From the NCBI GenBank assembly GCA_963719995.1, contig CAVRDW010000001.1, positions 259,770-323,769 on the forward strand: a stretch of 64,000 nucleotides of DNA, read 5' to 3'. Source of the DNA: an uncultured beta proteobacterium. Its GTDB lineage: Bacteria > Pseudomonadota > Gammaproteobacteria > Burkholderiales > SG8-39. A program made the translations under genes and the position numbers. The notes under the pieces are model-generated. The model did not search any database. It saw only the letters and a list, made by a program, of their open reading frames with translations, and had not been told where the DNA came from. The number at the start of each line of letters is the position of its first letter. Within the stretch, counting starts at the first letter, position 1. Shown here piece after piece: positions 2,545 through 62,223 of this stretch.

Positions 2545-4131
2545 CTAGAGTTGCGATTCGATCGGCAACCAGGACAGGAGGCCCGCCCCGAGCCGGCGCC
2601 AGAAGCTCGCACCGGGGTCGCTGTCGTAGCGTATCTCGCGTCCGTCTTCCAGCGCGATCCATTCTACGCGCCTGCCGGAGCCCGCTGCGTCCCCCGGCGC
2701 CAGCGCCAAACGATAGGCCGAGCCGCGCAGATCGGCATCGAGCCGCTGCACAAAGGCGCGCGCCATCTCGGGCATCTCGAGGATGACGCCGATCTCGGTG
2801 TTCAGGAACAACGAGCGCGGATCGAGGTTCATCGAACCGACGAACAGGGTGCGCCGGTCGGCGACGAAGGTCTTGGCATGCAGCGCCGCGCGCGAGGACC
2901 CGCTCACGCCATGCGCCGTGTCGGTGCGCTTGGCCGCCGCATCCTGTTTCTGGGCCGCGCCCGGCTTGAGCTCATAGAGCTCGACGCCCGCCTCGAGCAG
3001 GGGCTTGCGATAGCGCTGGTAGCCGGAATGCACCGAGACGACGTCCGTCGAGGCGAGCGAGTTGGTGATGATCCGCACCTTCACGCCGCGCTGGCGCAGC
3101 CGCCGCAGGGACTCCACGCCTTCCTTGCCGGGCACGAAGTAGGGCGACAGCACCAGCAGTTCCGATTCGGGCGGCGCCACTTCGCTGCGCAGCCTGGACT
3201 GCAGGTGGGTTGCCTGCTGCGTCGGAGCGGACTCGATCTTCTGCGGATCGTCGAACACCATGCGGGCATCGCCCCAGAAGTACTCCACGGCGTAGGCGCG
3301 CAGCCGCGCCGCGAGCGGGCTCCTGAGCAGGGCTTGTGCGTACGGCCCGTCCTTCTGCGATTCGACGAACGCGTGGAGCGCCGCGCGCGCCTGCGCGACC
3401 GCCTGCGCGTCCGGCTGGCCGCGTGCGAGCGCCTCGATCGGGTAGACCATGGCGCTGTTCCAGTACAGGTCGAATGCCCCGGATACCTGCGCCACCACCG
3501 GCCCGACCGCGACGACGTCGAAGTCGCGCATCTCCACGTCCTCGCGCGCCGCGAAGTACTCGTCGCCGATGTTGCGGCCGCCGACAATGCCCATCTGGTT
3601 GTCGGCGGTGAACGACTTGTTGTGCATGCGGCGGTTCGTGCGCTCGAATTCGGCGAGCAAGCCGAGGGTGCGCGCGCCGCGCATCGCCAGGGGGTTGAAC
3701 AGGCGCACCTCGACGTTGGGATGGGCGTCGATCATGAGCAGGTCGGCGTCCTTGGCGGCGGTGCCGACGTCGTCGAGCAGCAGGCGCACGCGCACGCCGC
3801 GATCAGCCGCGCGCAGCAGCGCGTCGACCAGAAGCTTGCCACTGACATCGCCATGCCAGATGTAGTACTGGAGGTCGAGGCTGCGTTCAGCGGCCTCGGT
3901 GAGCACGACGCGGGCGACGAACGCGTCGAGTCCGCTCGCCAGGGGGAAGGAGCCCGAGCGCGGCGCGTGCCGCGCAAGCAGCGGGGCGAGCGCATGCGCG
4001 AGACGCGTGTTTCCCGTGTCGCTCAGCGCGTAGCTTTCTTTGCGCGGATAGTCCGTCGGCAGGTTCATGCAGCTGGCCAGAGCGGCGCTGAGCAACAGGC
4101 AGGTCAATCCATGCTGCGCGTTGCGGAGCAT
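2545..4131 (-). CDS. phospholipase D-family lipoprotein (two HKD motifs)
   Basis: Intact 528-aa ORF. Lipobox LSAALASC. Two HxKxxxxD motifs (HNKSFTADN and HAKTFVADR). Confidence 0.85.
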   Translation of the reverse strand: MLRNAQHGLTCLLLSAALASCMNLPTDYPRKESYALSDTGNTRLAHALAPLLARHAPRSGSFPLASGLDAFVARVVLTEAAERSLDLQYYIWHGDVSGKLLVDALLRAADRGVRVRLLLDDVGTAAKDADLLMIDAHPNVEVRLFNPLAMRGARTLGLLAEFERTNRRMHNKSFTADNQMGIVGGRNIGDEYFAAREDVEMRDFDVVAVGPVVAQVSGAFDLYWNSAMVYPIEALARGQPDAQAVAQARAALHAFVESQKDGPYAQALLRSPLAARLRAYAVEYFWGDARMVFDDPQKIESAPTQQATHLQSRLRSEVAPPESELLVLSPYFVPGKEGVESLRRLRQRGVKVRIITNSLASTDVVSVHSGYQRYRKPLLEAGVELYELKPGAAQKQDAAAKRTDTAHGVSGSSRAALHAKTFVADRRTLFVGSMNLDPRSLFLNTEIGVILEMPEMARAFVQRLDADLRGSAYRLALAPGDAAGSGRRVEWIALEDGREIRYDSDPGASFWRRLGAGLLSWLPIESQL

Positions 4132-23712: not shown

Positions 23713-24439
23713 CGCTGCCCTGCCGGGGCCGCACGTCGGATAGCAGACGGCTGAATTCCTTGCCGACCACGCCATAGCATTCGCACACGCGCGCCTCGAG
23801 CCGGGTGCGCTCGAGCACCTCGATGTGCCCGCGGCGCGAGAGGATGGCTCCGGCTTGCTGCAACCGGCCGGCGACCTCCGTGATGCTTTCCCTGCGCACG
23901 CCGAGCATGCCGGCGACCTGTTCCTGCGTCATGACGAATTGGCCAGAGGGGATGCGATCGAGGGTCACCAGCAGCCAGCGGCACAGCTGCTGCTCGACCG
24001 AATGATGCCGGTTGCAGACCGCCGTCTGCGACATCTGCGCCATCAGCGCCTGGGTGTAGCGCAGCAGCAGGCGCTGCATCGGGCCGGCGCGATCGAATTC
24101 CGCCTTGAGCAGGCGGCGCTCCAGGCGCCAAGCCTCGCCGGCGGTCTGCACCACCGCCGAGCTCGGTGTCGTATCTCCGCCCATGTACAGGGATATGCCC
24201 ACCATGCCTTCATTGCCTACGCCCGCCACCGAGGCCGAGTCGCCGGACTCCATGACGTAGTGCAGCGACACGATGGCGGTGATGGGAAAGTAGGCATGCT
24301 GCAACTGGCTGCCGGGTTCGTAGATCATCTGCCCGAGGGGCATTGGCACGCGCTCCAGGTGCGGGGCAAGGCGCTCGAAGTCCTCCCTGGGCAACGCGGC
24401 GAGAAGGAGGTTCTGACCGGGGTCGTGGCGGGTGCGCAT
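23690..24439 (-). CDS. Crp/Fnr-family transcriptional regulator (paralogue 2)
   Basis: Intact 249-aa ORF. TAVCNRHHSVEQQLCRWLL, HTH MLGVRRESITEVAGRL, C-terminal VCECYGVV. Confidence 0.9.
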   Translation of the reverse strand: MRTRHDPGQNLLLAALPREDFERLAPHLERVPMPLGQMIYEPGSQLQHAYFPITAIVSLHYVMESGDSASVAGVGNEGMVGISLYMGGDTTPSSAVVQTAGEAWRLERRLLKAEFDRAGPMQRLLLRYTQALMAQMSQTAVCNRHHSVEQQLCRWLLVTLDRIPSGQFVMTQEQVAGMLGVRRESITEVAGRLQQAGAILSRRGHIEVLERTRLEARVCECYGVVGKEFSRLLSDVRPRQGSVTAPSAG

Positions 24440-27049: not shown

Positions 27050-27793
27050 CTAGGCGACGCTGGATGGCCTTGCTTCCACGAAGCTCGGCGCAGGGATCTT
27101 CGAGTACGCCACCCCGTCGTGCATGTCGCGCACGACGGTATAGCAGTCGCAACAGGCGGCTTCGAGTCCGGCGTGATCCAGGATCCTGATGCTGCCGCGG
27201 CTGTACTCGATGAGGTGGCGGCGCTGCAGATCGCTTGCCGCTTCGGTGACGCCGACCCGGCGCACGCCCAGCATGTGCGACAGGAATTCGTGCGTCATGC
27301 GGAATTCTCCCGAGCGCACGCGGTCGCGGGTCATCAGCAGCCAGCGGGCAAGCCGTGCCTCTACGACGTGGAAGCGATTGCAGGCCGCGGTCTGCGAGAT
27401 CTGCGCCATCAGCGTGTGGACATAGAGGTTCAACTCGGTCTGCAGAGCGGGGATGGCGTGCAGTTCGGTGCGGAAGCGGTCCGCGCTCATTTTCAGGGCG
27501 TACCCGGCACCCTGAACCAGTGCGCGCACCGACGAAACGCCGATGCCCAACGCCAACGGAACCCCGACCATGCCTTCGCGGCCCACCATGCCGACTTCAA
27601 GCGCGAGATGGCCGTCCACCGGGGTCAGCAGGGATACCAGGGACTCGGTGGGGAAGAAGACGTCGCGGATGGTGTCGCCGGGATGGTAGAGGGTATCGCC
27701 GAAGGTCAGCGTCACGGGGGCGAGGCCGGAAACCATCCGCTGATAGGACTTGCGCGGCAAGGCCGCCAACAGGCTGTTGAGTATTGCCGCCAT
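27050..27793 (-). CDS. Crp/Fnr-family transcriptional regulator (paralogue 3)
   Basis: ORF 27050-27844; the likely start is MAAILNSLLAALP at 27793. TAACNRFHVVEARLARWLL, HTH, C-terminal CCDCYTVV. Confidence 0.85.
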   Translation of the reverse strand: MAAILNSLLAALPRKSYQRMVSGLAPVTLTFGDTLYHPGDTIRDVFFPTESLVSLLTPVDGHLALEVGMVGREGMVGVPLALGIGVSSVRALVQGAGYALKMSADRFRTELHAIPALQTELNLYVHTLMAQISQTAACNRFHVVEARLARWLLMTRDRVRSGEFRMTHEFLSHMLGVRRVGVTEAASDLQRRHLIEYSRGSIRILDHAGLEAACCDCYTVVRDMHDGVAYSKIPAPSFVEARPSSVA

Positions 27794-27928
27794 CGAACAC
27801 GCATACTCTGCGCAGCCGCGCGAACTGTATGTGCGCTTGCCCACCTAGGGAAGCTCTGAACAGGTTCCGCGTGCGCGACTGGTTCAGGGCTTCCGTAGGG
27901 CGCGCGACGCCGAAGCGTCGGCGCAGAC

Positions 27929-28684
27929 CTATCTCGCGGCGGCTATGGGAGCCGCGTACGCAGCGGGCATCAGCCGGTCGTACTCCCGCTTGACCACAGC
28001 GTAGCACTCGCACACACGCGCTTCGAGCCGCTTGCGGTCTGTGACGTGGATGTGTCCGCGCCGATACTCGATCAACCCGTCAGCCTGCAGCCTGCTGGCG
28101 GCCTCGGTGACGCCCTCGCGGCGCACGCCGAGCATGTTGGCGATCAATTCCTGGGTCATCATCAGATTGTCGCCTTTCAGCCGGTCGAGGCTCAGCAGCA
28201 GCCAGCGGCACAGCTGCTGATCGATCGAATGGTGGCGGTTACAGACCGCGGTCTGCGTCATCTGCGTAATCAGCGCCTGCGTATAGCGCAGCAGCAGGTG
28301 CTGCAGCTCGGGGTTGGCGTCGAACTCCGCTTTAAGCACCGAAGCCCGGACCCGGTAGCCATGGCCGGCACTTTGCACGACGGCGCGGCTCGGCGTGGTT
28401 TCGCCGCCCATGAAAAGGGCGATGCCCACCAGGCCCTCGAAGCCGGTGACGGCGATCTCGGCCGAGGCGCCATCCGCCAGAACGTACAGAAGTGACACGA
28501 TGCTGTCGGTCGGGAAGTAGACATAACCCTGCTTGCCGCCGGACTCATACAGCACCATGCCCAGAGGCAGGGGAACATCCTCCAGCGAAGGCACAAGCTT
28601 GCGGTAGGTTGCGTCGGACAGGGACGCCAGAAGGAGATTCTGCTTCGGGCTGGGTGGGGCGGTGGCTGGTACCGCTTTGCGCAT
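27929..28684 (-). CDS. Crp/Fnr-family transcriptional regulator (paralogue 4)
   Basis: Intact 251-aa ORF. TAVCNRHHSIDQQLCRWLL, HTH MLGVRREGVTEAASRL, C-terminal VCECYAVV. Confidence 0.9.
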   Translation of the reverse strand: MRKAVPATAPPSPKQNLLLASLSDATYRKLVPSLEDVPLPLGMVLYESGGKQGYVYFPTDSIVSLLYVLADGASAEIAVTGFEGLVGIALFMGGETTPSRAVVQSAGHGYRVRASVLKAEFDANPELQHLLLRYTQALITQMTQTAVCNRHHSIDQQLCRWLLLSLDRLKGDNLMMTQELIANMLGVRREGVTEAASRLQADGLIEYRRGHIHVTDRKRLEARVCECYAVVKREYDRLMPAAYAAPIAAAR

Positions 28685-30884: not shown

Positions 30885-33737
30885 CTACTTGCGCGTCTCG
30901 ATCTGCACCAGCGGCTCCTCGCCGGCCGGACGCGAGGGTTCGCGGCGTGGCCGGCCGAGCGGCACGGACTCCTCGGGCTGCGCGGCCGGACTCGTCCGGT
31001 CAGCGCGCGTCTCCACCATCTGCAGCCCGGCGCTTTCCAGCATCTCGCGCGTATCCACGCGCGGCGCTTCCGGCGGCGCCGCCACGGGCCTTGACTCCAC
31101 CGGCCGCGTCGCCACGGGACTGGGCTCCACCGGCCGCGTCGCCACGGGACTGGGCTCCACCGGCTCCGCCGGGAGCGCAGCCGATAGCGCCAGTTCGGTC
31201 TTCACGACCTCGCCCGCGTCGCGCTCCTGGCTTGCGACTTCGCCGCGTGCTTCGCGTTCTCGCCGCGCGGCTTCGTCGCGGGCCTGCGCCTCGGCACGCA
31301 TCTGTGCCCGGTGCATTTCCCGCTCCCGCTTGCGCAGCTCCTCGACATCGGGGGACTTCGCCAGGAACGGCGGCACCTCGCCGGCTCCCTGGTCCTGCTC
31401 GAACGCGTCCGCCGGCAGTCCCGCAAGCTGCGGACGCGGACTCGCGCCCTGGTCGGGACGCCGCTCACGATGGCGGTCGCGGCGACCGCGCCGGCCGCGT
31501 CGCTGCTCGTCACCTTCGCGGGCCGCAGGCTGCGAGCCTTCGGGCATGCGTGGCGCCTGTGGCAGCAAGCCTTCTGCGGTGCGCGGTGCTTGCGGTTGCG
31601 AACCTTCGGCCGCGCGTGGCGTCTGCGGCTGAGATTGTTGAGGTTGCGCGGGTCGCTGTTGCCCCTGCGGGCGTTGCTGCTCAGGACGTCGCTCGCCGCC
31701 CGGGCGCTGGTCGCGCGGCTGCCCGCCATGGCGTTGGTCGGGCCTGCGCTCGCCGCCTTGCTGCGGACGGCGCTCGCCGCCCTGCTGCGGGCGGCGCTCG
31801 CCGCCACGGTGCTCGTCGCGCGGCCGGTCGCGCCGCTGATCGCGCCGCTCGTCGCGGCGCTCGCCGCCTTGGCGCTCACCACCGTGGCGCTGCTCGGGAC
31901 GGCGTTCGCGTTGCGACTGTTGCTCACGCCGCGGCTCGCGCGCAGTGCGTGAGGCGTCGTTCGCCGCAGGAAGCGCGGGCGATTCGGGTTTCTCCACCCG
32001 GAGCCATCCAAGGATCCGGCTCATGAAGCTCGTCTGAGACTGCGGGACCGCCTCGGCCCTGGCGGGCGCGGGGCGCGCAGGCTCGGCCGCCGGCGCTGCC
32101 GGTCGCTCCGGCACGATAGGGGCCGGCTGGTCGGGGACGATGCCCTTGACCGCAGCCTCGGGCCGCTCGCGCTTGGGCTCGCCCGTTGCCTCTTCGGGCT
32201 TGGGCTCTTCCGGCGGCTCGACCATCTCGTAGCTGGCGGGCACGTGCTCCATGGCGTTCAGCTCGTCGTGGCGCAGGCGCTGCACCTTGTAGTGCGGCGT
32301 CTCCAGGTGCGGGTTGGGCACCAGCAGGATGTTCACCTTGAGGCGCGCCTCGAGCTTCTGGATCTCCGCGCGCTTCTCGTTCAGCAGGAAGCTCGCCACG
32401 TCCACCGGCACCTGTACGTGCACGGCGCCCGTGTTCTCCTTCATGGCCTCTTCCTGCAGGATGCGCAGCACGTGCAGCGCCGTGGACTCGGTGCCGCGGA
32501 TGAAGCCGGTGCCGCTGCAGCGCGGGCAGCTGATGTGCGCCGTTTCCTCGAGGGACGCCTGCAGGCGCTGGCGCGAGAGCTCCAGCAGCCCGAAGCGCGA
32601 GATCTTGCCGATCTGCACGCGCGCGCGGTCGTAGCGCAGGGCGTCGCGAAAGCGGTTCTCCACCTCGCGCTGGTTCTTCTGCGACTCCATGTCGATGAAG
32701 TCGACCACGATCAGGCCGCCGAGGTCGCGCAGGCGCAGCTGGCGCGCCACTTCGTCGGCGGCCTCCAGGTTGGTGCGCAGCGCCGTTTCCTCGATGTCGC
32801 CGCCCTTGGTGGCGCGCGCCGAGTTGACGTCCACCGCGACCAGCGCCTCGGTGTGGTCGATGACGATCGCGCCGCCCGAGGGCAGGCTGACCTGGCGCGA
32901 GTAGGCGCTCTCGATCTGGTGCTCGATCTGGAAGCGCGAGAACAGGGGCACGTCGTCGCGGTAGAGCTTCACCTTGCCGACGTTGGCCGGCATCACCGTC
33001 TGCATGAACGTGCGCGCCTGCTCGTAGATCTCGTCGGTGTCGATCAGGATCTCGCCGATGTCCGGCTGCAGGTAGTCCCGGATGGCGCGGATGACGAGGC
33101 TCGACTCGAGATAGATCAGGAACGGCTTCTTTTCCTGCGTGGCCGTGGAGGCGCCTTCGACGGCGCCCCACAGCTGCAGCAGGTAATTGAGGTCCCACTG
33201 CAGCTCCTCGGGCGAGCGGCCGATCGCCGCCGTGCGCGCAATCACGCTCATGCCCTCGGGCACCTGCAGCTTGTCCAGCGTGTCGCGCAGCTCGTTGCGG
33301 TCCTCGCCCTCGACGCGGCGCGAGACGCCGCCGCCACGGGGGTTGTTCGGCATCAGGACGAGGTAACGTCCGGCGAGGCTGATGTAGGTGGTGAGGGCCG
33401 CGCCCTTGGTGCCGCGCTCGTCCTTCTCGACCTGGACGATGAGGTCCTGGCCTTCGGAGAGGGCATCCTGGATGCGCGCCCGGCCGACGTCCACGCCGGG
33501 CTTGAAATAGACCTTGTCGACTTCCTTGAAGGGCAGGAACCCGTGCCGTTCCTCGCCGTAATCGACGAAGGCGGCCTCGAGGCTGGGCTCGATGCGGGTG
33601 ATGATGCCTTTGTAGATATTGCTCTTGCGCTGCTCCCTTGCTGCGGACTCGATGTCGAGGTCGACTAACTTCTGTCCTTCTACGATGGCGACGCGCAACT
33701 CTTCCTGCTGCGTCGCATTGAACAACATGCGTTTCAC
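30885..33737 (-). CDS. rne: ribonuclease E
   Basis: Intact 950-aa ORF (GTG start). The N-terminal catalytic half is highly conserved ([24 protein letters not shown]...; [12 protein letters not shown] Zn-link). The C-terminal half is Arg/Pro/Glu-rich low-complexity scaffold. Confidence 0.97.
31081..31170 (-). repeat. 3 x 30-nt in-frame tandem repeat inside the rne scaffold region
   Basis: Units 31081-31110, 31111-31140 and 31141-31170 encode (PVATRPVE[PS]S/R) repeats. Confidence 0.85.
31747..31818 (-). repeat. 3 x 24-nt in-frame tandem repeat inside the rne scaffold region
   Basis: Units starting 31747, 31771 and 31795 encode GGERRPQQ-type repeats. Confidence 0.8.
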
Positions 33738-35579: not shown

Positions 35580-35914
35580 TCTGCGCCTCCGGCGCATTGC
35601 GCGAGGCGGGGGCCGGGGTGCGCTTCGACGTGGAGTACTTCGGCGAGCGCGCGCCTGCGTTCGTCGTGCGCTTCCAGGGGCGCGTCCACGGCTACCTCAA
35701 CCGCTGCGCGCACGTGGCAATGGAACTCGATTGGCGCGCGGGAGCGTTCTTCGATTCGGCGGGGCGCGATTTGATATGCTCGACCCACGGCGCCGTGTAC
35801 GCGGCCGACAGCGGGCGCTGCCTCGGCGGGCCCTGCGGCGGGGCGCCGCTGGTTCCCCTCAGGCTGGAAGAGCGCGACGGGCAGGTCTATTTCATAGGAG
35901 TCGCAGATGACTGA
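35558..35914 (+). CDS. Rieske [2Fe-2S] domain protein
   Basis: Intact 118-aa ORF. CAH...x17...CSTHG Rieske ligands. Confidence 0.85.
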   Translation: MADGARLICASGALREAGAGVRFDVEYFGERAPAFVVRFQGRVHGYLNRCAHVAMELDWRAGAFFDSAGRDLICSTHGAVYAADSGRCLGGPCGGAPLVPLRLEERDGQVYFIGVADD

Positions 35915-36848
35915 CAACGGCGAGCATTGGGAGCGCGGGCTGATCGAGAAGCTGGCGACCGCGGCGCTCAAGGAGCAACGTCGCGCGCGGCTGTGGGGCA
36001 TCTTCTTCAAGCTGCTGACCTTTGCCTACATCACCGTGATCATCCTGCTGGCGATCGACTGGAAGAGCGGGGGCGAGGTTTCCGGCAAGCACACGGCGCT
36101 GGTGGAGGTGAGCGGCATCATCGGTCCGGGCACCGATGCGAGCGCCGAGCGGGTCACCACCGCGTTGCAGGCCGCGTTCAAGGACAAGAACACGCAAGGG
36201 GTCGTGGTGCGCATCAACAGCCCCGGCGGCAGCCCGGTCCAGGCGCAGAACATCTACGAAGAGATGCGCAGGCTGCGCAAGAAGCATCCGGCGATCCCGC
36301 TCTACGCGGTGGTCGAGGACCTGTGCGCCTCGGGCGGCTATTACGTGGCCGCGGGAGCCGACCGCATCTACGTCGCCAAGTCGAGCATCGTCGGCTCCAT
36401 CGGCGTGCGCATGGACAGCTTCGGCGTCACCGGGCTGATGGAGAAGCTCGGCGTCGAGCGGCGCCTGCTCACCGCGGGGGACAACAAGGGCTTCCTCGAC
36501 CCGTTCCTGCCAGTGGACGAGCGCCAGAAGCAGCACGCGCAGACGCTGCTCGAGGACATCCATCAGCAGTTCATCGGCGTGGTGCGCGAAGGCCGCGGCA
36601 AGCGCCTGAAGGAGACGCCGGACATGTTCTCGGGGCTGATCTGGACCGGACACAAGAGCCTGGAGCTCGGGCTTGCCGACGCTTACGGCAGCCTCGACTA
36701 CGTGGCGCGCGAGGTCGTCAAGGCGGAGAACATCGTCGACTACACCCAGAAGGAGAACATCGCGGAGAAGTTCGCGCGCCGTTTTGGCGCCGGCGCCGCG
36801 AGCGCCATCCTCGAGCTGGCGATCCGCCAGGCACCGCAGCTGCGCTAG
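35907..36848 (+). CDS. sppA: signal peptide peptidase SppA, 36K type (S49)
   Basis: Intact 313-aa ORF. N-terminal anchor, catalytic region VRINSPGGS and CASGGYYVA...GSIGV. The TAG stop (36846-36848) shares its G with the first base of the downstream repeat element. Confidence 0.9.
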   Translation: MTDNGEHWERGLIEKLATAALKEQRRARLWGIFFKLLTFAYITVIILLAIDWKSGGEVSGKHTALVEVSGIIGPGTDASAERVTTALQAAFKDKNTQGVVVRINSPGGSPVQAQNIYEEMRRLRKKHPAIPLYAVVEDLCASGGYYVAAGADRIYVAKSSIVGSIGVRMDSFGVTGLMEKLGVERRLLTAGDNKGFLDPFLPVDERQKQHAQTLLEDIHQQFIGVVREGRGKRLKETPDMFSGLIWTGHKSLELGLADAYGSLDYVAREVVKAENIVDYTQKENIAEKFARRFGAGAASAILELAIRQAPQLR

Positions 36849-37203
36849 GGAGACTCTGATTTATTCGCGCGGTGGCGCGTTGCGGCCGGAACGCGGCGCC
36901 GGCTAGGCGCGCGGCCGCAGCGATAGGTCGATATCGCAAGGCCGAGCAACAACGCCGGCGCCCGTGTCATCGCGCTATCGTATGCCCACCGTCGAGGACT
37001 TCCGGCCGCAACCCGAAGGCGGCGAGGCCTTTGCCTTGAACCCCCGCCTCGCGGCCTCGCCGCCTGGAGGGACGGGGTCGAGTTTTCACGCATGGCTTCG
37101 CCATCGGCCGCCTTGCGGGCGTCCAGCACACGGCGGCGTCCGCTGTCTCGCCCTGCACGAAAATCGCCACCGTCGCGCACGCGGGAATAAATCAGAGTCT
37201 CCC
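36848..37203. mobile_element. MITE-like non-coding element, copy 1 (356 bp)
   Basis: Termini GGGAGACTCTGATTTATTC (left) and its exact reverse complement (right). Flanks are TA / TG. The internal sequence is homologous to copies 2 and 3 but in inverse orientation. Multiple internal inverted repeats. Only spurious ORFs. Confidence 0.8.
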
Positions 37204-37235
37204 TGGGCGGACGTCGCGCTGCCCGCCGGCTGGCC

Positions 37236-39266: not shown

Positions 39267-39306
39267 GCCTCCCGCGCGCATCCTCATCCGGCGGTCGCGG
39301 CGCAAA

Positions 39307-39536
39307 GGGAGCCTCTGGCCTATTCCCGCGTGCGCGACGGTGGCTCAGGGCAAAGGCCTCGCCGCCCTCGGGTTGCGGCCGGAAGTCCTCGACGGTTGGC
39401 ATACGATAGCGCGATGACACGGGCGCCGGCGTTGTTGCTCGGCCTTGCGATATCGACCTATCGCTGCGGCCGCGCGCCTAGCCGGCGCCGCGTTCCGGCC
39501 GCAACGCGCATGCGCGCGAATAAGCCAGAGGCTCCC
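39307..39536. mobile_element. MITE-like non-coding element, copy 2 (230 bp, internally deleted)
   Basis: Termini GGGAGCCTCTGGC[C/T]TATTC. Flanks are AA / TA. Lacks the roughly 125-195 bp central module of copies 1 and 3. Lies between rpmF and plsX. Confidence 0.8.
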
Positions 39537-39549
39537 TAGGACCAGCTCG

Positions 39550-40592
39550 ATGGACATCACGGTCGCAATTGACTGCATGGGGGGCGATCATGGCCCCCGG
39601 GTGACGGTCCCTGCCGCCCTGGAGCTATTGCGCCGGCACGCCGACGTCGCAGTCGTGTTGGTCGGGCAGCGTGAAGCGCTGGACAAGGAACTGGCGGCGC
39701 AGGGCCACTTGGATGGTGCGCGCCTGCGCGTTCGGCACGCAGCCGAAGTGGTCAGCATGGACGAGCCGCCGGCGCAAGCACTGCGCTACAAGAAGGACTC
39801 GTCGATGCGGGTCGCGGTCAACCTGGTGAAGACGGGCGAGGCCCATGCCTGCGTCAGCGCCGGCAACACCGGCGCGCTGATGGCGATCTCGCGCTATCGT
39901 GCTCAAGACCTTGCCCGGCATCGACCGCCCGCGATCGCCACGGTGCTGCCCAACATGCAGGGCGGCTAGACCTACGTGCTCGACCTGGGCGCCAACGTCG
40001 ACTGCACCCCCGAGCAGCTGATGCAGTTCGGCGTCATGGGGGCGATGCTGGTGGCGGCCGTCGAGCACAAGGAACGGCCAACGGTGGGCCTGCTCAACAT
40101 CGGCGACGAGGACATCAAGGGCAACGAGACGGTGAAGCGCGCGGCCGATCTGCTGCGCGCCAGCGGACTGAATTTCCACGGCAACGTCGAGGGCGACGAC
40201 ATCTTCAAGGGCACGACCGACGTGGTGGTCTGCGACGGCTTCGTCGGCAATGTCGCTGCTCAAGGCCTCCGAAGGCGTGGCCACGATGATCACCGGCTTC
40301 CTGCGCCAGGAGTTCACGCGCAATCCGTGGCGCAGGCTGTCGGCGCTGGTGGCGATGCCGGTGCTCAAAGCGCTGCGCAGCGCGCATGGATCCCGGCCGC
40401 TACAACGGCGCGAGCCTGCTCGGCCTGCGCGGCATCGTGATCAAGAGCCATGGCTCGGCGGACGCATACGCCTTCGGCCAGGCGCTGGAGCGCGCCGTCG
40501 AGGAGGTGCGCAACGACGTGCTCCAGCGCATCACCCGGCGCATGGGGCAAGCGCAGCCCGCCGCCGACGACAGGGAAGCGGCTGCGCGATGA
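39550..40592 (+). CDS. plsX: phosphate acyltransferase PlsX, interrupted (indel pair, in-frame TAG, further frameshifts)
   Basis: [16 protein letters not shown]..., [45 protein letters not shown], spread over ORFs 39445-39969, 39976-40440, 40250-40819 and 40386-40592. Confidence 0.9.
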
Positions 40593-41556
40593 TCTACTCG
40601 CGCATCGTCGGCACCGGCAGCTACCTGCCGCCGCGCGTCGTGACCAACGCGGAGTTCGCGGCGCGCCTGGACACCAGCGACGCGTGGATCCGCGAGCGCA
40701 CCGGCATCGCGCAGCGCCACATCGCCGACGAATCGCAGGCTTCGAGCGACCTCGCGCTGGAGGCGAGCCGCGCACGCGCTGGCAGGCGGCGGGCGTCAAG
40801 GCGCAGGACCTCGACCTGATCATCGTCGCCACCTCGACGCCGGACTTCGTCTTCCCCAGCACCGCCTGCCTGCTGCAGGCGAAGCTCGGCGTGCGCAAGG
40901 CTGCGCCGCGTTCGACCTGCAGGCGGTGTGCAGCGGCTTCGTCTATGCGCTGGCGACCGCCGACAGCTTCATCCGCTCGGGCATCGCAAAAGCGCGCGCT
41001 GGTCGTCGGCGCCGAGGTGTTCTCGCGCATCCTCGACTGGAACGACCGCGGCACCTGCGTGCTGTTCGGCGACGGCGCCGGCGCGGTGGTGCTCGCGGCG
41101 GACTCCAAGCCGGGCACTGCACGCGATCGATCCTGCACGCCGACGGCAGCCATGCCGGCATCCTGTGCGTGCCGGGCAACGTCTGCGGCGGACGCATCCT
41201 CGGCTCGCCCTTTCTGCAGATGGACGGGCAGGCCGGTGTTCAAGTTCGCGGTCAAGGTGCTCGACGAGGTGGCGCGCGAAACCGTCGCCGCGGCCGGCAT
41301 GCGCCTGGAGGACATCGACTGGCTGATTCCGCACCAGGCCAACGTGCGCATCCTGGAGGCCACGGCGCGCAAGCTCGGGCTGCCGCTGGAGAAGCTGGTG
41401 GTGACCGTCGATCACCACGGCAACACCTCGGCGGCGTCGGTGCCGCTGGCGCTGGACGAGTTCGTGCGCGCGGGAAAGATCCGGGCCGGGCACCGCGTGC
41501 TGATGCAAGGCGTCGGCGGTGGTTTCACCTGGGGCGCGACTCTCGCGACAATGTGA
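40589..41556 (+). CDS. fabH: 3-oxoacyl-ACP synthase III, frame interrupted at least 5 times
   Basis: [20 protein letters not shown]..., [10 protein letters not shown] (active-site Cys), [25 protein letters not shown]. The sequence alternates among three frames. Confidence 0.9.
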
Positions 41557-49012: not shown

Positions 49013-49237
49013 ATTCTTCGCCTCTACGGGCGCCGGTATTGCCACTTGTGCGAGGAAATGGCGCTCGCGTTGCGCGCGCTGGCGGTGCCGTTCGTGGAGA
49101 TCGACGTCGATGCCGACGCGGCCCTCGAGGCGCGCTACGGCGAGCGGGTGCCCGTGCTGACCGACGCCGCGGGCGCGGAGATCTGCCACTACCGCCTCGA
49201 TGAGGCCGCCCTGCGAACCCGGCTTGCGGTAAGATAG
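49013..49237 (+). CDS. glutaredoxin-like (DUF836) protein, start codon unresolved
   Basis: ...[48 protein letters not shown]. There is no ATG/GTG/TTG upstream of the CxxC in frame. ATT 49013 lies 8 nt after GGAGGG. Confidence 0.6.
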
Positions 49238-55278: not shown

Positions 55279-55658
55279 TCTACGGCGTCGGCACCGACCT
55301 GATCGAGATCACCCGCGTCGAGCGCGCGCTGGCGCGCTTCGGCGTACGTTTTGCGCAGCGCATTCTCTGCGAGCCGGAGTTGCAGCGCTTTGCCACGCAT
55401 GCCAAGCCCGCCGCCTACCTCGCCAAGCGTTTCGCCGCCAAGGAAGCCTTCTCCAAGGCCCTGGGGACCGGGATCCGCGCGCCGGCAAACTGGCACGGCG
55501 TGTGGGTGATCAACCACCGCTCCGGAAAGCCTCAGCTCGAGTTCTCGGCTGAGCTCGCTGCGCTGCTGCGCAGCCGCGGCATCCTGCGCTCGCACCTCAC
55601 CCTGACCGATGAGCGCGGCATGGCGGCGGCCACGGTGATCCTCGAATGCGACGGCTGA
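55275..55658 (+). CDS. acpS: holo-ACP synthase
   Basis: [16 protein letters not shown]...[14 protein letters not shown] overlap with pdxJ. Confidence 0.9.
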
Positions 55659-56678
55659 GGGCGCGCCTGCCGCTGGGTCCGGTCGTGGTGGATCCGGCGG
55701 GCACCGCCCTGAACGACGACGACCGCCGCCGGATGCTGCACCCGGCGGCCGGCGGCGTCATCTTGTTCGCACGCAATTTCGAGAATGCCGCGCAGCTGCA
55801 GGCGCTCACCGAGGAGATCCATTGCCTGCGCGAGCCGCCGCTGCTCATCGGCGTGGACCACGAGGGCGGGCGGGTGCAGCGATTCCGCGAAAGCTTCACC
55901 GTGCTTCCGCCCATGCGTGCGCTGGGCGGCCTGTGGGATCGCGACCGGGAGGCGGGCAGGGCGGCAGCGCGCGCCGCCGGCTACATCATCGCTGCCGAGC
56001 TCGCGGCCCATGGCCTGGACTTCAGCTTCACGCCGGTGCTGGACCTGGATTACGGCGCCAGCGCAGTGATCGGCGACCGCGCGCTGCATTTCGACCCGAT
56101 CGCCGTGGGCGCGCTGGCGGCTGCGCTGATCAGCGGTCTGGGCGACGGCGGCATGGCCGCGGTCGGGAAGCACTTTCCGGGGCACGGCTACGTGGCTGCC
56201 GACTCCCATGTCGCCATCCCGGTCGACAATCGCGCGCTCGCGGAGATCCTGCGCAAGGATCTGGCTGCCCTACGGGCCCGCGATTGCGGCAGGTCTCGCC
56301 GGCGTGATGCCGGCGCACGTGGTCTATCCCGAGGTGGACCGGGAGCCCGCCGGCTACTCGAGCATATGGCTGAAGGACGTGCTGCGCGGGCGGCTGGGGT
56401 TCGAAGGGCTCATCTTCAGCGATGACCTGTCGATGGCCGGGGCGAGCGGCGCCGGCGATCATGCCGCCCGGGCCCGCGCCGCGCTGGCGGCCGGCTGCGA
56501 CATGGTGCTGCTATGCAATGACCTGGAGGGTGCGGAACGGCTGCTGCACGCTCTGGCAGCGCAGGCCTCGCCGATGCCGGAGCGCCTGGAGCGCATGCGC
56601 CGCCGGGGCGGCGGTCGCGACCTGAGGAAGAGCGTGGCCTTCCGGGATGCGCAGGAAGCGCTCGGCGCGCTGGCCTAG
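55646..56678 (+). CDS. nagZ: beta-N-acetylhexosaminidase NagZ, one frameshift
   Basis: [30 protein letters not shown], then ORF 56208-56678 ([10 protein letters not shown]..., IFSDDLSM). The frames join at about 56265. The TAG stop shares its G with MITE copy 3. Confidence 0.9.
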
Positions 56679-57101
56679 GGAGCCTCTGATCTATGTCCGC
56701 GTGCGCGACGGTGGCGATTTTCGTGCAGGGCGAGACAGCGGACGCCGCCGTGTGCTTGACGCCCACAAGGCGGCCGATGGCGATGCCATGCGCGAACCCC
56801 GCAGGCGCTTGCGCCTGCGGGCGTCGCGGGGCGCCCGTGAGGAGCGCAGCCGCAAGCGGCTGCGCTGCTCGCCCCGTCCCTCCAGGCGGCGAGGCCGTGA
56901 GGCGTGGGTGTAAGGCAAAGCCCTCGCCGCCCTCGGGTTGCGGCCGGAAGCCCGTGGCGGTTGGCTTGCGATAGCGCCATGACACGGGCGTCGGCGTTGT
57001 TGCTCGGCCTTGCGATATCGACATATCGCTGCGGCCGCGCGCCTAGCCGGCGCCGCGTTCCGGCCGCAACGCGCACCCGCGCACATAGATCAGAGGCTCC
57101 C
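56678..57101. mobile_element. MITE-like non-coding element, copy 3 (424 bp, longest)
   Basis: Termini GGGAGCCTCTGATCTATGT (left) and its exact reverse complement (right). Flanked by TA on both sides (56676-56677 and 57102-57103). Same orientation as copy 2. Carries about 70 bp more than copy 1. Confidence 0.85.
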
Positions 57102-57670
57102 TAAGCGCGCTCCATGTAGGTGCCTTCGTTCGTGTCGATCTTGATGCTGCTCGCCCTTGTTGATGAACGGCGGTACCTGCACCGTGATGCCGGTTTCCAT
57201 CGTCGCGGGCTTGAAGGTGTTGGTCGCCGTCGCGTTCCGGATGCCGGGCTCGGTGTCGACCACCGTGAGCACCACGGAGGGCGGAATCTCGATGCCGATC
57301 GCGCGGCCATTGTAGAAATTGATCTGCACGTCGGTGTTGGGCAGCAGGTAGCCGGCCTGTCCCTCGAGAAACTCTTCCGGCAAGCGTCAACTGCTCGTAG
57401 TTTTCCTTGTCCATGAAGACGTAGCCGGTCGCCGTCCTGGTAGAGGAACTGCATGTCGCGCGGATCGACGAAGGCGCGCTCGACCTTGTCCTCGGTGCGG
57501 AAGCGCTGGTTGGTCTTGGTGCCGGCCTCGATGTCCTTCATCTCGACCTGCATGAAGGCGCCGCCGCGGCCGCCGACGTGCACGTGGTAGCACTTGAGCA
57601 CGCGCCAGACGCGCTTGTCCCACTCGAGCAGGTTGCCGACGCGGATTTCGACTGCGGAGACCTTGGACAT
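57101..57670 (-). CDS. efp: elongation factor P, frame interrupted about 3 times
   Basis: [52 protein letters not shown]..., middle in ORFs 57043-57414 and 57090-57383 ([36 protein letters not shown]), end ...[14 protein letters not shown]. The TAG stop shares its G with the MITE terminus. Confidence 0.92.
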
Positions 57671-57746
57671 GGCGGGTTGCCGTGCGGAAAAAGGGCCGCG
57701 AATTCTACACTGGATTCGCGCCCGGGCGCTAGAATTCGCGCTCCGC

Positions 57747-59517
57747 ATGGATGCGCCGCGCTTCGACCCGAAGAGCTTCGTCGCCGGGCTGCCGAACCTG
57801 CCCGGGGTCTACCGCATGCTGGGGCCGGGCGGGGAGGCGCTGTACGTCGGCAAGGCACGGGACCTGAAGAAGCGCGTCGGCAGTCGTACTTCCAGAAGAA
57901 TGTCGCCAGCCCGCGCATCCGCATGATGCTGCAGCAGGTCGCGCAGATCGAGGTCACCGCGACGCGCTCGGAGGCGCGAAGCGCTGCTCCTGGAGAACAA
58001 CCTCATCAAGAGCCTCGCGCCGCGCTACAACATCCTGTTCCGCGACGACAAGTCGTATCCCTACCTGGTGATCAGCGGCCACCGCTTCCCGCGCCTGGGC
58101 TTCCATCGCGGCGCGGCGCGAGCGCGGCGACCGCTACTTCGGCCCGTTTCCGCACGCATCCGCGGTGCGCGAGAGCATCCAGCTGCTGCAGCGCGTGTTC
58201 CGCCTGCGCACCTGCGAGGACACGGTGTTCGCGAATCGCTCGCGACCCTGCCTGCTGCACCAGATCCGGCGCTGCACGGCGCCCTGCACGGGCCTGATCA
58301 GCGAGCAGGCGTACGCGCAGGACGTGCAGCACGCCGAACTGTTCCTGCGCGGGCGCGAAGACGACGTCATGCAGCGCCTCAACGAGCGGATGCAGGCCGC
58401 CTCGCAGTTGCACGACTACGAGGCGGCGGCGGTGTTCCGCGACCAGGTGCGCGCGCTGGCGCGCGTGCAGGCGCGGCAATACGTGGAGTCCAATCGCGGC
58501 GTGGATGCCGACGTCGTCGCGTGCGCCATCGCGGGCGGCCTGGCCTGCGTGAACCTGGCGATGATCCGCGGCGGGCGGCACGTCGGCGACCGCAGCTACT
58601 TTCCCGCGAACGCCGATGCGGCGGAGGCGGCGGAGGTGCTGCAGGCGTTCCTCGAGCAGCATTACGTCGAGCAGCCGCTGCCGCCGCTGGTGCTGGTGAG
58701 CCACCCGGTGGAGTTCGACGCGTTGCGGCCCACGCAAGGGGAACGTCGCGTCTGGCTGGCGATGGCCTTGAAGAACGCCCAGCTCGCGCTGGCGCAGCGC
58801 GCGCGCGAGACGGGCGCGCAGGAAGAGCGCCTGGCCGCGCTGCGCGATGCGCTCCAGCTCCCTGACTCGGCGCAGCGCATCGAGTGTTTCGACATCAGCC
58901 ACACCATGGGGGAGGCCGCCGTGGCATCCTGCGTGGTCTATGACAGGCACACGCTGCAGAAGGGCGAGTACCGGCGCTTCAACTTGCGCGGCATTACCCC
59001 GGGCGACGACTACGCGGCGATGCGCCAGGCGCTGGCGCGGCGCTACGAACGCGTCAATGCGGAAGACGGCAGAATTCCCGACCTGGTGCTGATCGACGGC
59101 GGCAAAGGGCAGGTCAGCGCAGGCCGCCAGGCGCTGGCGGAGCTCGGCCTGCACGAAGTGGTGATTGTCGGCGTCGCCAAGGGTCCGGAGCGCAAGCCGG
59201 GCCTCGAGGAACTGATCGTGGAGACCGATCGGCGCGCCCTGCAGCTGGCGCCGACGCATCCCGGCTTGCACCTGATCCAGCAGATTCGCGACGAGGCGCA
59301 CCGCTTCGCCCTCGTGGGACACCGCGCGCGGCGCGGTCGCGCGCGCACCACCTCGACGCTGACGCAGATTCCCGGCATCGGCGCGCAGCGCCGGCAGCGC
59401 CTGCTGGCGCATTTCGGCGGCCTGCGCGAGGTGCAGGCCGCCGCCGTGGACGAAATCGCCCAAGTCGAAGGCATCAGCCGGCCGCTGGCCGAGCGCATCT
59501 ACAAGGCGCTGCACTGA
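57747..59517 (+). CDS. uvrC: excinuclease ABC subunit C, frame interrupted at least 3 times in the first 450 nt
   Basis: GIY-YIG N-terminus ([30 protein letters not shown]), [26 protein letters not shown] readable in a second frame, and the rest in ORF 58165-59517 (UVR, RNase-H-like and HhH domains). Confidence 0.92.
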
Positions 59518-60107: not shown

Positions 60108-60183
60108 GCGGGAGTAGCTCAGTTGGTAGAGCGCAACCTTGCCAAGGTTGAGGTCGCGAGTTCGAGACTCGTCTCCCGCTCCA
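60108..60183 (+). tRNA. tRNA-Gly (anticodon GCC)
   Basis: 76-nt cloverleaf by hand. GCGGGAG acceptor, TTGCCAA anticodon loop, encoded CCA. A TATAAT box lies at 60086-60091 upstream. Confidence 0.95.
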
Positions 60184-60193
60184 GCTTAGCGTA

Positions 60194-60221
60194 GGGAAGG
60201 CCGGGAGGCCTTCCCTTTTTC
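60194..60221 (+). terminator. hairpin plus T-run between tRNA-Gly and tRNA-Cys
   Basis: GGGAAGGCC-GGGA-GGCCTTCCC followed by TTTTTC. Confidence 0.6.
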
Positions 60222-60234
60222 ATTGCATCCCCGG

Positions 60235-60308
60235 GGCGGGATGGCAGAGTGGTCATGCAGCGGCCTGCAAAGCCGTGGACGCCGGTTCGATTCCGACTCC
60301 CGCCTCCA
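60235..60308 (+). tRNA. tRNA-Cys (anticodon GCA)
   Basis: 74-nt cloverleaf. GGCGGGA acceptor, CTGCAAA anticodon loop, encoded CCA. Confidence 0.93.
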
Positions 60309-60328
60309 ATCCTTCCCGCTGCACGACC

Positions 60329-60415
60329 GCCCGGGTGGCGAAACTGGTAGACGCAAGGGACTTAAAATCCCTAGGCCGCAAGGCCGTGCAGGTTCAAGTC
60401 CTGCCCCGGGCACCA
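60329..60415 (+). tRNA. tRNA-Leu (anticodon TAA)
   Basis: 87-nt class-II tRNA with a long variable arm (GGCCGCAAGGCCG). CTTAAAA anticodon loop, encoded CCA. Confidence 0.93.
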
Positions 60416-60432: not shown

Positions 60433-62223
60433 TCAGGGAATGATCTTGGTAACTTCGTTCGAGTACGTACTTTCATTATTCGAAGTGTCATAGGCCGTCG
60501 CTGCAAAATAGTACCGCGTCCCGCTGCTCAGTCCCGTCACCGTATGGGTGGTGACGTTTCCCACGTTCAGCCCGTGCCCGACGGACTGAAGATAGGTTCC
60601 CGGGGCGGTGCCGTAATAAATGCGGTAGCCACTCAGATTTTCGGCTGTTACGGCATCCCAGACGAGGGTGGCGCTGGTGCCAGGCGCCAGCGTAGTCGCA
60701 TTAACCGCAATTGACGGGCCTGAGGAGTTTCCCGCCGCATCAAGAGCCCGGACGGTGTAGGAGTAACTCGTGGAAGCGGTGAGGCCGGTGTTTTGAAATG
60801 TGGTGACGGCTCCCAGGGTGGCGATTTGCGATTCCACCACGATAGACGTTGTAACCGGTTACCCCAACATTATCCGTCGCAGCAGTCCAGGAAAGATTGA
60901 TTTGCGAGGAGGACGCAGCGGTAGCGGTGAGTCCCGTCGGAGTTGAGGGTGCGGTGGTGTCGGGCGCTGCTTGAGTCGCGGTAATGGCTGATGACGATGA
61001 TGCGGAGAGATTCCCCGCCGCATCAAAAGCTCGGACAGTGTAGGAGTATGCGTGGAAGCGGTGAGGCCGGTATTTTGAAATGTGGTGACGGCTCCCAGGG
61101 TGGCGATTTGCGTTCCACCACGATAGACGTTGTAGCCGGTTACCCCAACATTATCCGTCGCAGCAGTCCAGGAAAGATTGATTTGCGAGGAGGACGCAGC
61201 GGTAGCAGTGAGTCCCGTTGGAGTTGATGGTGCGGTGGTATCTGGCGCTGCTCGCGTCGTGGCACTGGCCAATGAGGATATTGGGGAGACATTCCCTGCG
61301 GCATCCAGAGCTCGCACGGAGTAGGAGTAAGTCGTGGAAGCGGCGAGGCCGGTGTTTTGGTATGTGGTGACGTTGCCCAGCGTAGTCAGGAGCGTGCCGT
61401 TGCGGCGGACCCTGTAGCCGGTTACTGCGACGTTGTCCGTGGAGGCTGACCAGCTGAGGTTGATCTGGGAGGCAGAGACGGCGTTCGCGGTGAGTCCCGT
61501 TGGTGTTGATGGCGCGATGGTATCGGCTGCGACCGGCGTCGTCGCACTTGCTGCGGTTGACTGGGCAGAGACATTCCCCGCAGCGTCAATCGCCTGGACT
61601 CTGTAGGAATAGGCTGTAGAAGCGGTCAAGCCAGTGTTCTGGAATGTGGTGGCATTGCCCAGAGTGATCAGGAGCACGCCGCCTCGAAAGACTCGGTAGC
61701 CCGTTACTGCCACGTTGTCTGTGGAGGCTGACCAGCTGAGGTTGATCTGGGAGGCAGAGACGGCGTTCGCGGTGAGTCCCGTTGGTGTTGATGGTGCGGT
61801 GGTATCTGGCGCCGCTCGCGTCGTGGCACTGGCCGATGAGGATATTGGGGAGACATTCCCTGCGGCATCCAGAGCTCGCACGGAGTAGGAGTAAGTCGTG
61901 GAAGCGGTGAGGCCGGTGTCTTGGTATGTGGTGACGTTGCCCAGCGTAGTCAGGAGCGTGCCGTTGCGGCGGACTCTGTAGCCGGTTACTGCGACGTTGT
62001 CCGTGGAGGCTGACCAGCTGAGGTTGATCTGGGAGGCAGAGACGGCGTTCGCGGTGAGTCCCGTTGGTGTTGATGGTTTGGTGGTGTCGGCAGCTTGAAG
62101 AGGCCAAGGCGCGGCAAGGAGGAGTGCAAGCAACGCGTTCAGGGGCCCGCGCGCCGGGCGATAAAGTCTTATCGCGCTCGAAGTACCGCGATTGATATTG
62201 AAGGCATTCCTGAATTTGTTCAT
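60433..62223 (-). CDS. secreted protein made of tandem fibronectin type III domains (5 x 94-aa units + 1 divergent FN3), frame interrupted twice
   Basis: ORFs 60859-62223 and 60433-60840, plus a bridging stretch in a third frame. Signal peptide ...LLLAAPWPLQA. Repeats read PSTPTGLTANAVSASQINLSWSASTDNVAVTGYRV.R.G...TLGN.TT.Q.TGLTASTTYSYSVRALDAAGNVS. Indels are at about 61046 (-1) and 60831 (+1). No catalytic domain. Confidence 0.8.
60650..62065 (-). repeat. 5 x 282-bp coding tandem repeat (FN3 units)
   Basis: The marker GGTGAGTCCCGT (AGTGAG... in the 61207 copy) recurs at 62053, 61771, 61489, 61207 and 60926. Spacing is 282, 282, 282 and 281 nt. Units 1 and 3, and units 4 and 5, are near-identical at DNA level. 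Confidence 0.85.

Follow-up and report, generated by a model that had tools for sequence, protein, structure and literature searches.

How do the two ends of a short repeat come to agree with each other within a copy, when the same ends differ from one copy to the next? This question is raised by a stretch of 64,000 nucleotides (nt) from an uncultured beta proteobacterium (Burkholderiales, SG8-39; contig CAVRDW010000001.1, positions 259,770 to 323,769), here called the window, which holds three hairpin-forming repeats whose terminal inverted repeats vary in step. The repeats are copies of a small, mobile, noncoding element, with about 30 further copies in six Burkholderiales metagenome-assembled genomes (MAGs) and in metagenomes. 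We are confident that they are MITEs (miniature inverted-repeat transposable elements) of the IS5 group of insertion sequences (ISs), and the concerted evolution of their arms is a clean and unusually rich case. As to its cause, we lean slightly toward the view that the elements are nonautonomous deletion derivatives of the IS5 group whose arms are kept alike by arm-to-arm templated correction.

Copies within the window

A sequence-only reading of the window had placed copies at 36848-37203, 39307-39536, and 56678-57101. With GGGAG...CTCCC as the ends of the element, all three are present there, and the sequence reads as described. With the boundaries of an IS5-type element, the copies and a fourth, remnant one are as follows.

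36849-37202, minus strand: copy 1, 354 bp by IS5-type boundaries (GGAGAC...GTCTCC), with GGAGACTCTGATTTATTC as the haplotype of both arms
36849-36873, plus strand: example of a terminal arm, the R-end arm of copy 1
39308-39535, plus strand: copy 2, 228 bp, an internal-deletion variant between rpmF and plsX
56679-57100, plus strand: copy 3, 422 bp, with GGAGCCTCTGATCTATGT on both arms
27849-27894, plus strand: remnant or "mini" copy, 46 bp, flanked by CTAG and GTAG

Repeat finding gives a pairwise identity of 91 to 94% among the three copies. Copy 1 lies opposite to copies 2 and 3, because its matches to both are inverted (36846-37077 against 56872-57103, 232 nt, 91%; 36845-37052 against 39332-39539, 208 nt, 94%), and 39349-39538 matches 56914-57103 directly. 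The L-end of copy 1, which resembles the left inverted repeat (IRL) of an IS, is accordingly found at the right side of the window copy. Both repeat finding and alignment agree with the earlier description of copy 1 as inverted and of copy 2 as lacking a central module; about 126 nt are absent from copy 2, and copy 3 has an additional module of about 70 nt that consists of two small hairpins. The termini quoted in that description, and the six paired differences between copies, are genuine. The arms of copy 2 are GGAGCCTCTGGCCTATTC and GGAGCCTCTGGCTTATTC, and their single C/T mismatch is the only arm disagreement among the three copies. That the copies have no coding capacity is supported indirectly, by 1-nt and large internal indels between copies and by the lack of an Rfam match. 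The count of three copies stands for full-length elements but falls short otherwise, since the window also holds the 46-bp remnant, in which 31 nt of the L-end (GGAAGCTCTGAACAGGTTCCGCGTGCGCGAC) are fused directly to a degenerate R arm (TGGTTCAGGGCTTCC), and since the family is part of a superfamily of at least 91 MITEs.

Copies elsewhere and empty sites

Burkholderiales MAGs were scanned for further copies with an exact 20-mer from the conserved core, which occurs at 29 loci in six MAGs. Full copies from the window and these six MAGs, 27 in all and mostly 354 to 357 bp in length, make up the alignment referred to below as A2. A blastn search of the plasmid collection with copy 1 gave no match.

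Mobility is seen directly in the relatives of the window. Exact look-up of the L32 protein of the window provided ten syntenic contigs. Copies 1 and 2 are present in a single one of these (L162, 97.3% identical), and both sites are empty in the remaining nine, L165 (95.7% identical) among them. In most of the empty relatives, ...gcgCTAG at site 1 runs straight into the downstream spacer, and L165 has cggTAG there; in the window, CTAG-[GGAGAC...GTCTCC]-CTGG precedes the same spacer that L165 has. At site 2, the spacer between rpmF and plsX is 35 to 53 bp in the nine empty relatives. In L165 (3181-3233, compared with window 39267-39540), the empty spacer is a hairpin with a 7-bp stem, GGTCGCG-GTGGGCA-CGCGACC. 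Copy 2 interrupts a hairpin of this type, replacing its loop and right arm, and its flanks (AAAG at 39304-39307 and CTAG at 39536-39539) form no clean CTAG duplication. The reverse situation is found at one position of the window.

49214-49218: empty site, whose orthologous position in MAG contig DASTHP010000220 (L017) has a 356-bp copy

Flanks at this position are 88 to 94% identical, and the junction is resolved to about +/-4 nt. For copy 3, an exact look-up of AcpS for an empty site returned no record. As copies are absent from relatives, and the window is empty where L017 is filled, the copies are recent, precise insertions. The proposal of a MITE-like, hairpin-forming mobile family is thus supported by numerous dispersed copies and empty orthologous sites; the contrary possibility of a conserved structure specific to the locus is not borne out by the 29 MAG loci and nine empty relatives.

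A degenerate terminus pattern scanned over metagenomes gave at least 120 loci, which upon pairing of ends yielded at least 93 unique elements. Two of these are 1184 and 1210 bp in length with one open reading frame (ORF) each. The same termini enclose at least 91 MITEs of 44 to 460 bp with many unrelated interiors, and the "mini" MITEs of 44 to 55 bp are merely two back-to-back arms. The window copies have the features of MITEs, with lengths of 228 to 422 bp, arms of about 25 bp, and indels between copies that are not multiples of three.

Parentage in the IS5 group

The ORFs of the 1184- and 1210-bp elements carry DDE_Tnp_1 and DUF772, match NF033581 at 345 and 356 bits (cutoff, 140), and encode transposases that are 57% and 48% identical to Escherichia coli InsH. 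Autonomous elements with MITE termini and a transposase gene inside measure 1.17 to 1.21 kb (L091:1593-2802, L125:741-1924, and the IS types found with P0028, P0065, and P0009). The same end type is present in plasmid-borne IS5-group elements (Variovorax, IS2000, ISPre1, and ISPa41) and in those found through homologues of the L091 transposase.

The ends themselves are of the IS5 type, with an inverted repeat of the GGAAGGTGCGAACAAG kind. The two ends of E. coli IS5A read GGAAGGTGCGAACAAGTCCC and GGAAGGTGCGAATAAG. Of the 18 bases in the E. coli IS5 inverted repeat, 15 are shared by GGAAGCTCTGAACAAGTCCC (also given as GGAAGCTCTGAACAAGTC), the arm that is most frequent among the MITEs, and the right inverted repeat (IRR) of the L091 IS agrees with IS5A at 16/18. 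The window arms score only 8 to 9/18 against IS5A because of their variable positions. In the IS of the P0065 type, the IRL reads ...AAGTCCCGCG and the IRR ...AAGTCGC; this C/G asymmetry at position 21 is the same as that between the MITE L-end and R-end, and the MITE is therefore a deletion derivative that has kept one IRL-like and one IRR-like end. By this comparison of ends, the conserved C.C mismatch in the MITE stem is inherited from the IRL/IRR difference of the parent IS. Autonomous elements with the same termini were found, none of them in the genome of the window copies, and for this reason the window copies would be mobilized in trans.

The sequence-only reading had suggested an IS630/Tc1-mariner origin. 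This does not hold, as the termini bound IS5-family transposases and exact nonpalindromic 4-bp duplications occur. An IS630 parent was rejected because every transposase found between these termini is of the DDE_Tnp_1 type; a DDE_3 gene was seen only once (L091:2882-3961), and it is not enclosed by the termini. This IS630-type gene (DDE_3 plus helix-turn-helix) directly follows an IS5-type IS and is itself followed, at position 3994, by a further MITE end with the IRL haplotype of that IS. Integron attC sites, REP/BIME elements, retron a1/a2 repeats, and IS200/IS605 ends were set aside once the IS5 partner was found.

Target site and flanking bases

IS5 is established to insert at YTAR with a 4-bp duplication. 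Exact 4-bp duplications flank 27 of 58 sister-family MITEs, eight of which are nonpalindromic (TTAG, CTAA, CTGG, CTTG, and CTTT are represented), and 10 of 25 IS copies, with TTAG, CTAA, and CTAT among the autonomous elements; CTAG duplications also occur among ISs and sister families. The earlier observation of TA in four of the six window flanks is correct, and these TA dinucleotides are the core of the CTAG target. The duplication of TA that they had suggested does not fit the exact nonpalindromic 4-bp duplications of the sister families and the ISs. The idea of an IS630 element seemed plausible because at CTAG a 2-bp and a 4-bp duplication yield the identical string; the empty site of copy 1 is CTAG and is compatible alike with both. 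A strict 2-bp TA duplication was rejected on two counts: the left T is missing in 11/30 copies with the adjacent A nearly invariant, and under the model every duplication of the TTAG, CTAA, or CTTT type would leave the terminal repeats mismatched at their first base.

Most CTAG sequences of this GC-rich genome are c+TAG at the end of a gene. Copy 1 is placed at the stop codon of an S49 peptidase gene, and copy 3 at a tetranucleotide common to the convergent stops of a GH3 gene and efp, as seen in the following features.

36845-36848: CTAG beside copy 1, the target tetranucleotide, which includes the TAG stop of the Peptidase_S49 gene 35907-36848
37203-37206: second copy of the copy 1 target, now CTGG, one A>G change from CTAG
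56675-56678: CTAG left of copy 3, which holds the TAG stop of the GH3 (NagZ-like) gene
57101-57104: CTAA right of copy 3, where CTA is the complement of the TAG stop of minus-strand efp

The target duplication regenerates the stop codons.

In the 356-bp family, the two bases adjoining the inverted repeat are AG on the left and CT on the right, with 6/120 deviating. The outer two flank bases deviate in 35/120 and are not direct repeats (e.g., copy 1, L005, L010, and L025). Several outer deviations change CTAG to CCAG or CTGG. Such changes are reminiscent of very-short-patch (VSP) repair in a CTAGG context. Neither VSP-like decay of CTAG nor chimeric assembly can account for the fixed AG/CT in all copies (e.g., L025a with AGAG/CTAT), and the same applies to in situ extension of the stem, a donor-derived 5' flap, and gene conversion between copies. 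In two sets of metagenome contigs with the same IS (L174, L177, and L178; L182 and L184), one flank is common and the other different; such half-shared flanks point to chimeric assembly across repeats, and all flank statistics have to be read with this in mind.

Covariation of the two arms

Positions are given here in IS5 numbering, in which G1 is the first G of GGA. In A2, the 25-bp terminal stem is 94% paired, and 10/25 of its pairs have changed on both sides, in 76 cells; none of 500 shuffles reaches that value, and sliding the structures by 1 to 3 columns leaves 1 to 16 such cells. The covariation proposed from three copies thus holds over about 30 and is beyond chance. Identical 18-nt arms are present in 56 of the 91 MITEs listed, with at least 29 distinct haplotypes. 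The arms share the conserved blocks GGA, CTCTGA, A15, T17, and CGCG and vary in step at positions 4, 5, 12, 13, 14, 16, and 18, which coincide with those where the arms of autonomous ISs differ or vary. Diversity (pi) is 0.22 in the arms and 0.125 in the interior.

Over eleven IS types, the two arms of an IS disagree at 0 to 6 positions (median, 3), and the arms of a MITE resemble each other more closely than those of an IS (Mann-Whitney, p = 9e-5; p = 1.4e-3 when, to allow for ascertainment, only ISs that pass the pairing threshold are counted). As IS arms differ at these positions, the transposases tolerate the differences, and something else keeps the MITE arms alike. One polymorphism is present as T/T, as C/C, and as heterozygous C/T in the sister copies L005, L024, and L022. 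Singletons are not depleted in the arms (2.0%, compared with 1.2% in the interior), with per-genome sampling too sparse to equate private with postinsertion changes. The number of mismatches does not rise with element length (rho = -0.27, a value confounded by family). Haplotypes interleave on a tree of the interior (about 330 columns, weakly resolved and open to gene conversion between copies), from which we draw no conclusion.

The agreement of the arms could also reflect distinct subfamilies, each with its own IS5-group transposase, in which proliferation selects the same "address" on both arms and no pairing is needed. The same arm haplotypes do turn up in more than one genome and in MITE families whose interiors differ, are partly clade specific, and in one case (the MITE end AC.AACAAGTC in L091) equal the IRL haplotype of the neighboring IS; IS5-group inverted repeats also differ between IS types. 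However, at least 29 matched haplotypes in near-combinatorial mixtures would require equally many transposase specificities, and 9/11 IS types tolerate differing bases on their own arms at these positions. Within one genome, the recent insertions copy 1 and copy 2 have arms that differ at four positions. The arm variants ATCTATTC, ATTTATTC, and GCCTATTC are not among the 12 IS types or ends read, and variants with TATTC, CAATTC, and TTATTC are likewise in none of them. Moreover, haplotypes that look recombinant do so on both arms at once, which still calls for arm-to-arm copying or selection. We therefore consider separate subfamilies an unlikely source of the covariation.

RNA or DNA level

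Another possibility is that selection acts on a transcribed RNA hairpin, such as an RNase III substrate, a stabilizer of mRNA 3' ends, an attenuator, or a small RNA, and that the paired changes are classical compensatory substitutions. The folding of each copy, which had been suggested as a check, gives a very stable hairpin with both strands alike; copy 2 forms a very stable rod with z scores of -8.5 and -7.6 for the two strands. Small internal hairpins covary as well, with pair 78:86 being AU in 17 copies and GC in 8. RNA-level compensatory changes have a precedent in the bcr1 repeats of Bacillus (PMC3184786). Between codirectional genes, the IRL-like end lies upstream in 13 cases and downstream in 2 (binomial p of about 0.01; the 27 A2 copies plus L053, L075, L110, L123, and L129), a bias which suggests some transcription-linked effect.

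Other properties speak against an RNA. Neither strand is favored in folding energy: of 27 copies, 17 fold more stably as the L-to-R strand (p = 0.12). Transversion flips (A:T<->T:A, G:C<->C:G, or G:C<->T:A), which cannot go through a wobble intermediate, make up about half of the paired changes, and G.U intermediates are nearly absent, with only 4 to 5 wobble cells. Rfam gave no match that reached the gathering score, and the hits at E <= 1 were all to unrelated families at a level expected by chance; scans for promoters and terminators inside the copies gave nothing consistent, and no consensus promoter or terminator emerged. Gene neighborhoods of all kinds harbor copies, and some copies lie between convergent genes. 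Dozens of unrelated interiors lie within the same arms, which points to a transposase site rather than to an RNA. Considered as a structured RNA class, the family has strand-equal energies and few G.U cells, and the orientation bias is the only point in favor. Selection on an RNA stem is accordingly quite improbable as the cause of the matching arms. Of the two hairpin-based explanations in the sequence-only reading, a functional stem and hairpin-templated correction, the RNA form of the former is disfavored by the lack of strand preference, and the latter, at the DNA level, is the one that we favor.

How the arms may be kept alike

The absence of strand preference, the transversion flips, and the T/T, C/C, and C/T states fit DNA-level templated copying. 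In the mechanism that we propose, an IS5-family DDE transposase encoded elsewhere would, judging from homology, recognize the conserved blocks of the inverted repeat of about 25 bp and place the element into tetranucleotides of the CTAG-like (YTAR) kind, with duplication of the 4 bp. Such sites would mostly be TAG stops at gene ends, where the duplication would regenerate the stop. The varying positions would not be needed by the transposase, and the arms of IS5 elements vary or disagree there too. In a short and strongly self-complementary MITE, intrastrand template switching at the quasipalindrome during replication would then keep the arms identical, so that a mutation in one arm would be either erased or copied onto the other. 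In E. coli and other Proteobacteria, template switching removes the mismatches of imperfect inverted repeats, and one event can yield multibase "compensatory" changes (PMC7202029, PMC5941160, PMC8794818). As the main cause of the covariation, correction by template switching is proposed only tentatively, at somewhat less than even odds.

Complementarity might instead arise during movement, with one arm rebuilt from the other at each transposition, or with a folded single strand that mimics a double-stranded IS end, and the complementarity over about 20 nt being a by-product or a requirement. Consistent with this, complementarity is near perfect for exactly the outer 20 nt and ends at the conserved mismatch, and minis of two back-to-back arms exist. 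The fixed AG/CT beside the inverted repeat is also unlike the state of IS copies; deviations at inner and outer flank bases number 6 and 35 in the MITEs but 15 and 15 in autonomous IS copies (Fisher p = 0.002). To our knowledge, however, no such rebuilding mechanism has a precedent among DDE transposases of the IS4/IS5 type, and the single-stranded intermediate is hypothetical. The asymmetry at position 21 is already explained by descent from the IRL/IRR difference of the parent, and sister families have stable arm mismatches. Copying during transposition is thus highly unlikely. It is conceivable, though we give it only a small chance, that the arms together with the two adjoining flank bases are actively made complementary in an extruded hairpin or cruciform, or that the IS5-type transposase acts on a folded single strand. 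In either case, the persistence or movement of these MITEs would involve hairpin-templated copying, and the greater perfection of MITE ends, compared with the ends of the parent ISs, could be a consequence.

Several observations weigh against the explanation that we lean toward, of IS5-derived MITEs with templated correction. Neither the window nor the MAG loci showed similarity to an IS5 transposase. Exact target duplications are present in only 9/30 copies of the 356-bp family, all of them CTAG, and the flanks are often inexact. MAG and metagenome contigs may be chimeric across repeats, although chimeras would break matched arms and not make them. The orientation bias is not predicted by a purely symmetric process. 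The C.C mismatch at position 21 is kept in 25/27 copies, and a 162-bp sister family has a fixed arm mismatch (AACAAG versus AATAAG); correction is therefore neither universal nor fast. This family comprises L034, L054, L064, L073, L103, L107, and L115, and the E. coli IS5 inverted repeats differ from each other in the same way. In two IS types, the 18-nt arms are perfect despite a separation of 1.2 kb. Finally, orthologous MITEs were found as two pairs only (L054/L103 and L087/L122), which are from other families and differ by one unpaired change or none, so that no paired change was caught in situ among these two pairs.

Other features of the window

Conserved genes of the window are interrupted. 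Gene plsX (39541-40600) has an in-frame stop and then a frameshift, the GH3/NagZ-like gene (55646-56678) is divided into two overlapping frames, and efp (57101-57748) has a Pfam match to the N-terminal domain only, with the C terminus in frame again. This suggests error-prone assembly or pseudogenes; as many window genes are frameshifted, single-base details may be errors.

A tandem repeat of 282 bp (60731-62085, 4.8 copies, 81% identity) lies directly after three tRNA genes (60108-60412) and encodes FN3-like repeats of 94 amino acids in the minus-strand ORF 60859-62223, with a probable frameshift into 60433-60840. Three short tandem arrays at 31070-31805, whose periods are 30, 33, and 24 nt and which each comprise about 2.5 to 3 copies, are probably coding repeats. 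Segments of 157 nt are repeated at 63 to 82% identity (23955-24111, 27321-27477, 28182-28338, and 897-1053); they are probably from paralogous regulators, because one lies within a gene for a Crp/Fnr-type regulator (27950-28600, minus strand).

Relation to known elements and significance

The element itself is of an ordinary kind, as IS5-derived MITEs are already known, and the covarying ends are the exception. It shares with E. coli IS5 and the IS5 group (IS2000, ISPre1, ISPa41, and unnamed elements of Variovorax and soil metagenomes) the inverted repeat GGAAG..C.GAACAAGTC and the YTAR/CTAG type of target, with a 4-bp duplication that is seen as such in sister families. Unlike these ISs, the window copies are 228 to 422 bp long and without transposase, and their interior is a stack of GC-rich hairpins with no relation to IS5 beyond about 25 nt per end. 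Correia elements of Neisseria are hairpin MITEs of 100 to 155 bp, TA flanked, with terminal repeats of about 26 bp and several end types; they differ in their true TA duplication and terminal repeat, and their ends combine freely, whereas here both ends agree.

MITEs derived from the IS5 family include BrickBuilt, MITE293, and MITE700 of Porphyromonas gingivalis and ATR of Neisseria, which is linked to ISNme1 (PMC4596501). Like the window family, these are short and noncoding, with ends that match resident IS5-family ISs, long stem-loops, and variable or missing target duplications, but they have other inverted repeats and belong to another IS5 subgroup and other hosts, and the same study reports no concerted arm variation (PMC4596501). 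The bcr1 element of the Bacillus cereus group (about 155 bp) is likewise a mobile, MITE-like repeat in which compensatory changes keep a cruciform-like fold (PMC3184786). In contrast to the window family, which looks symmetric at the DNA level, it has 5-bp direct repeats and no link to IS5, and its covariation was read at the RNA level. Quasipalindrome template-switch mutagenesis is a process and not an element family, and it resembles what is seen here in making imperfect repeats perfect (PMC7202029, PMC5941160, PMC8794818). In these MITEs it would have to act between arms 200 to 400 nt apart, a spacer longer than those of classical quasipalindrome hotspots.

The superfamily appears to be undescribed and abundant in uncultured soil Burkholderiales. 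Its members insert at TAG stop codons without destroying them, and together they constitute a natural experiment in which the transposase end is shared, the unconstrained positions drift, and the arms drift together. The family is a good system for measuring arm-to-arm templated correction apart from selection on RNA stems, and this has a bearing on the reading of covariation as proof of functional RNA structure.

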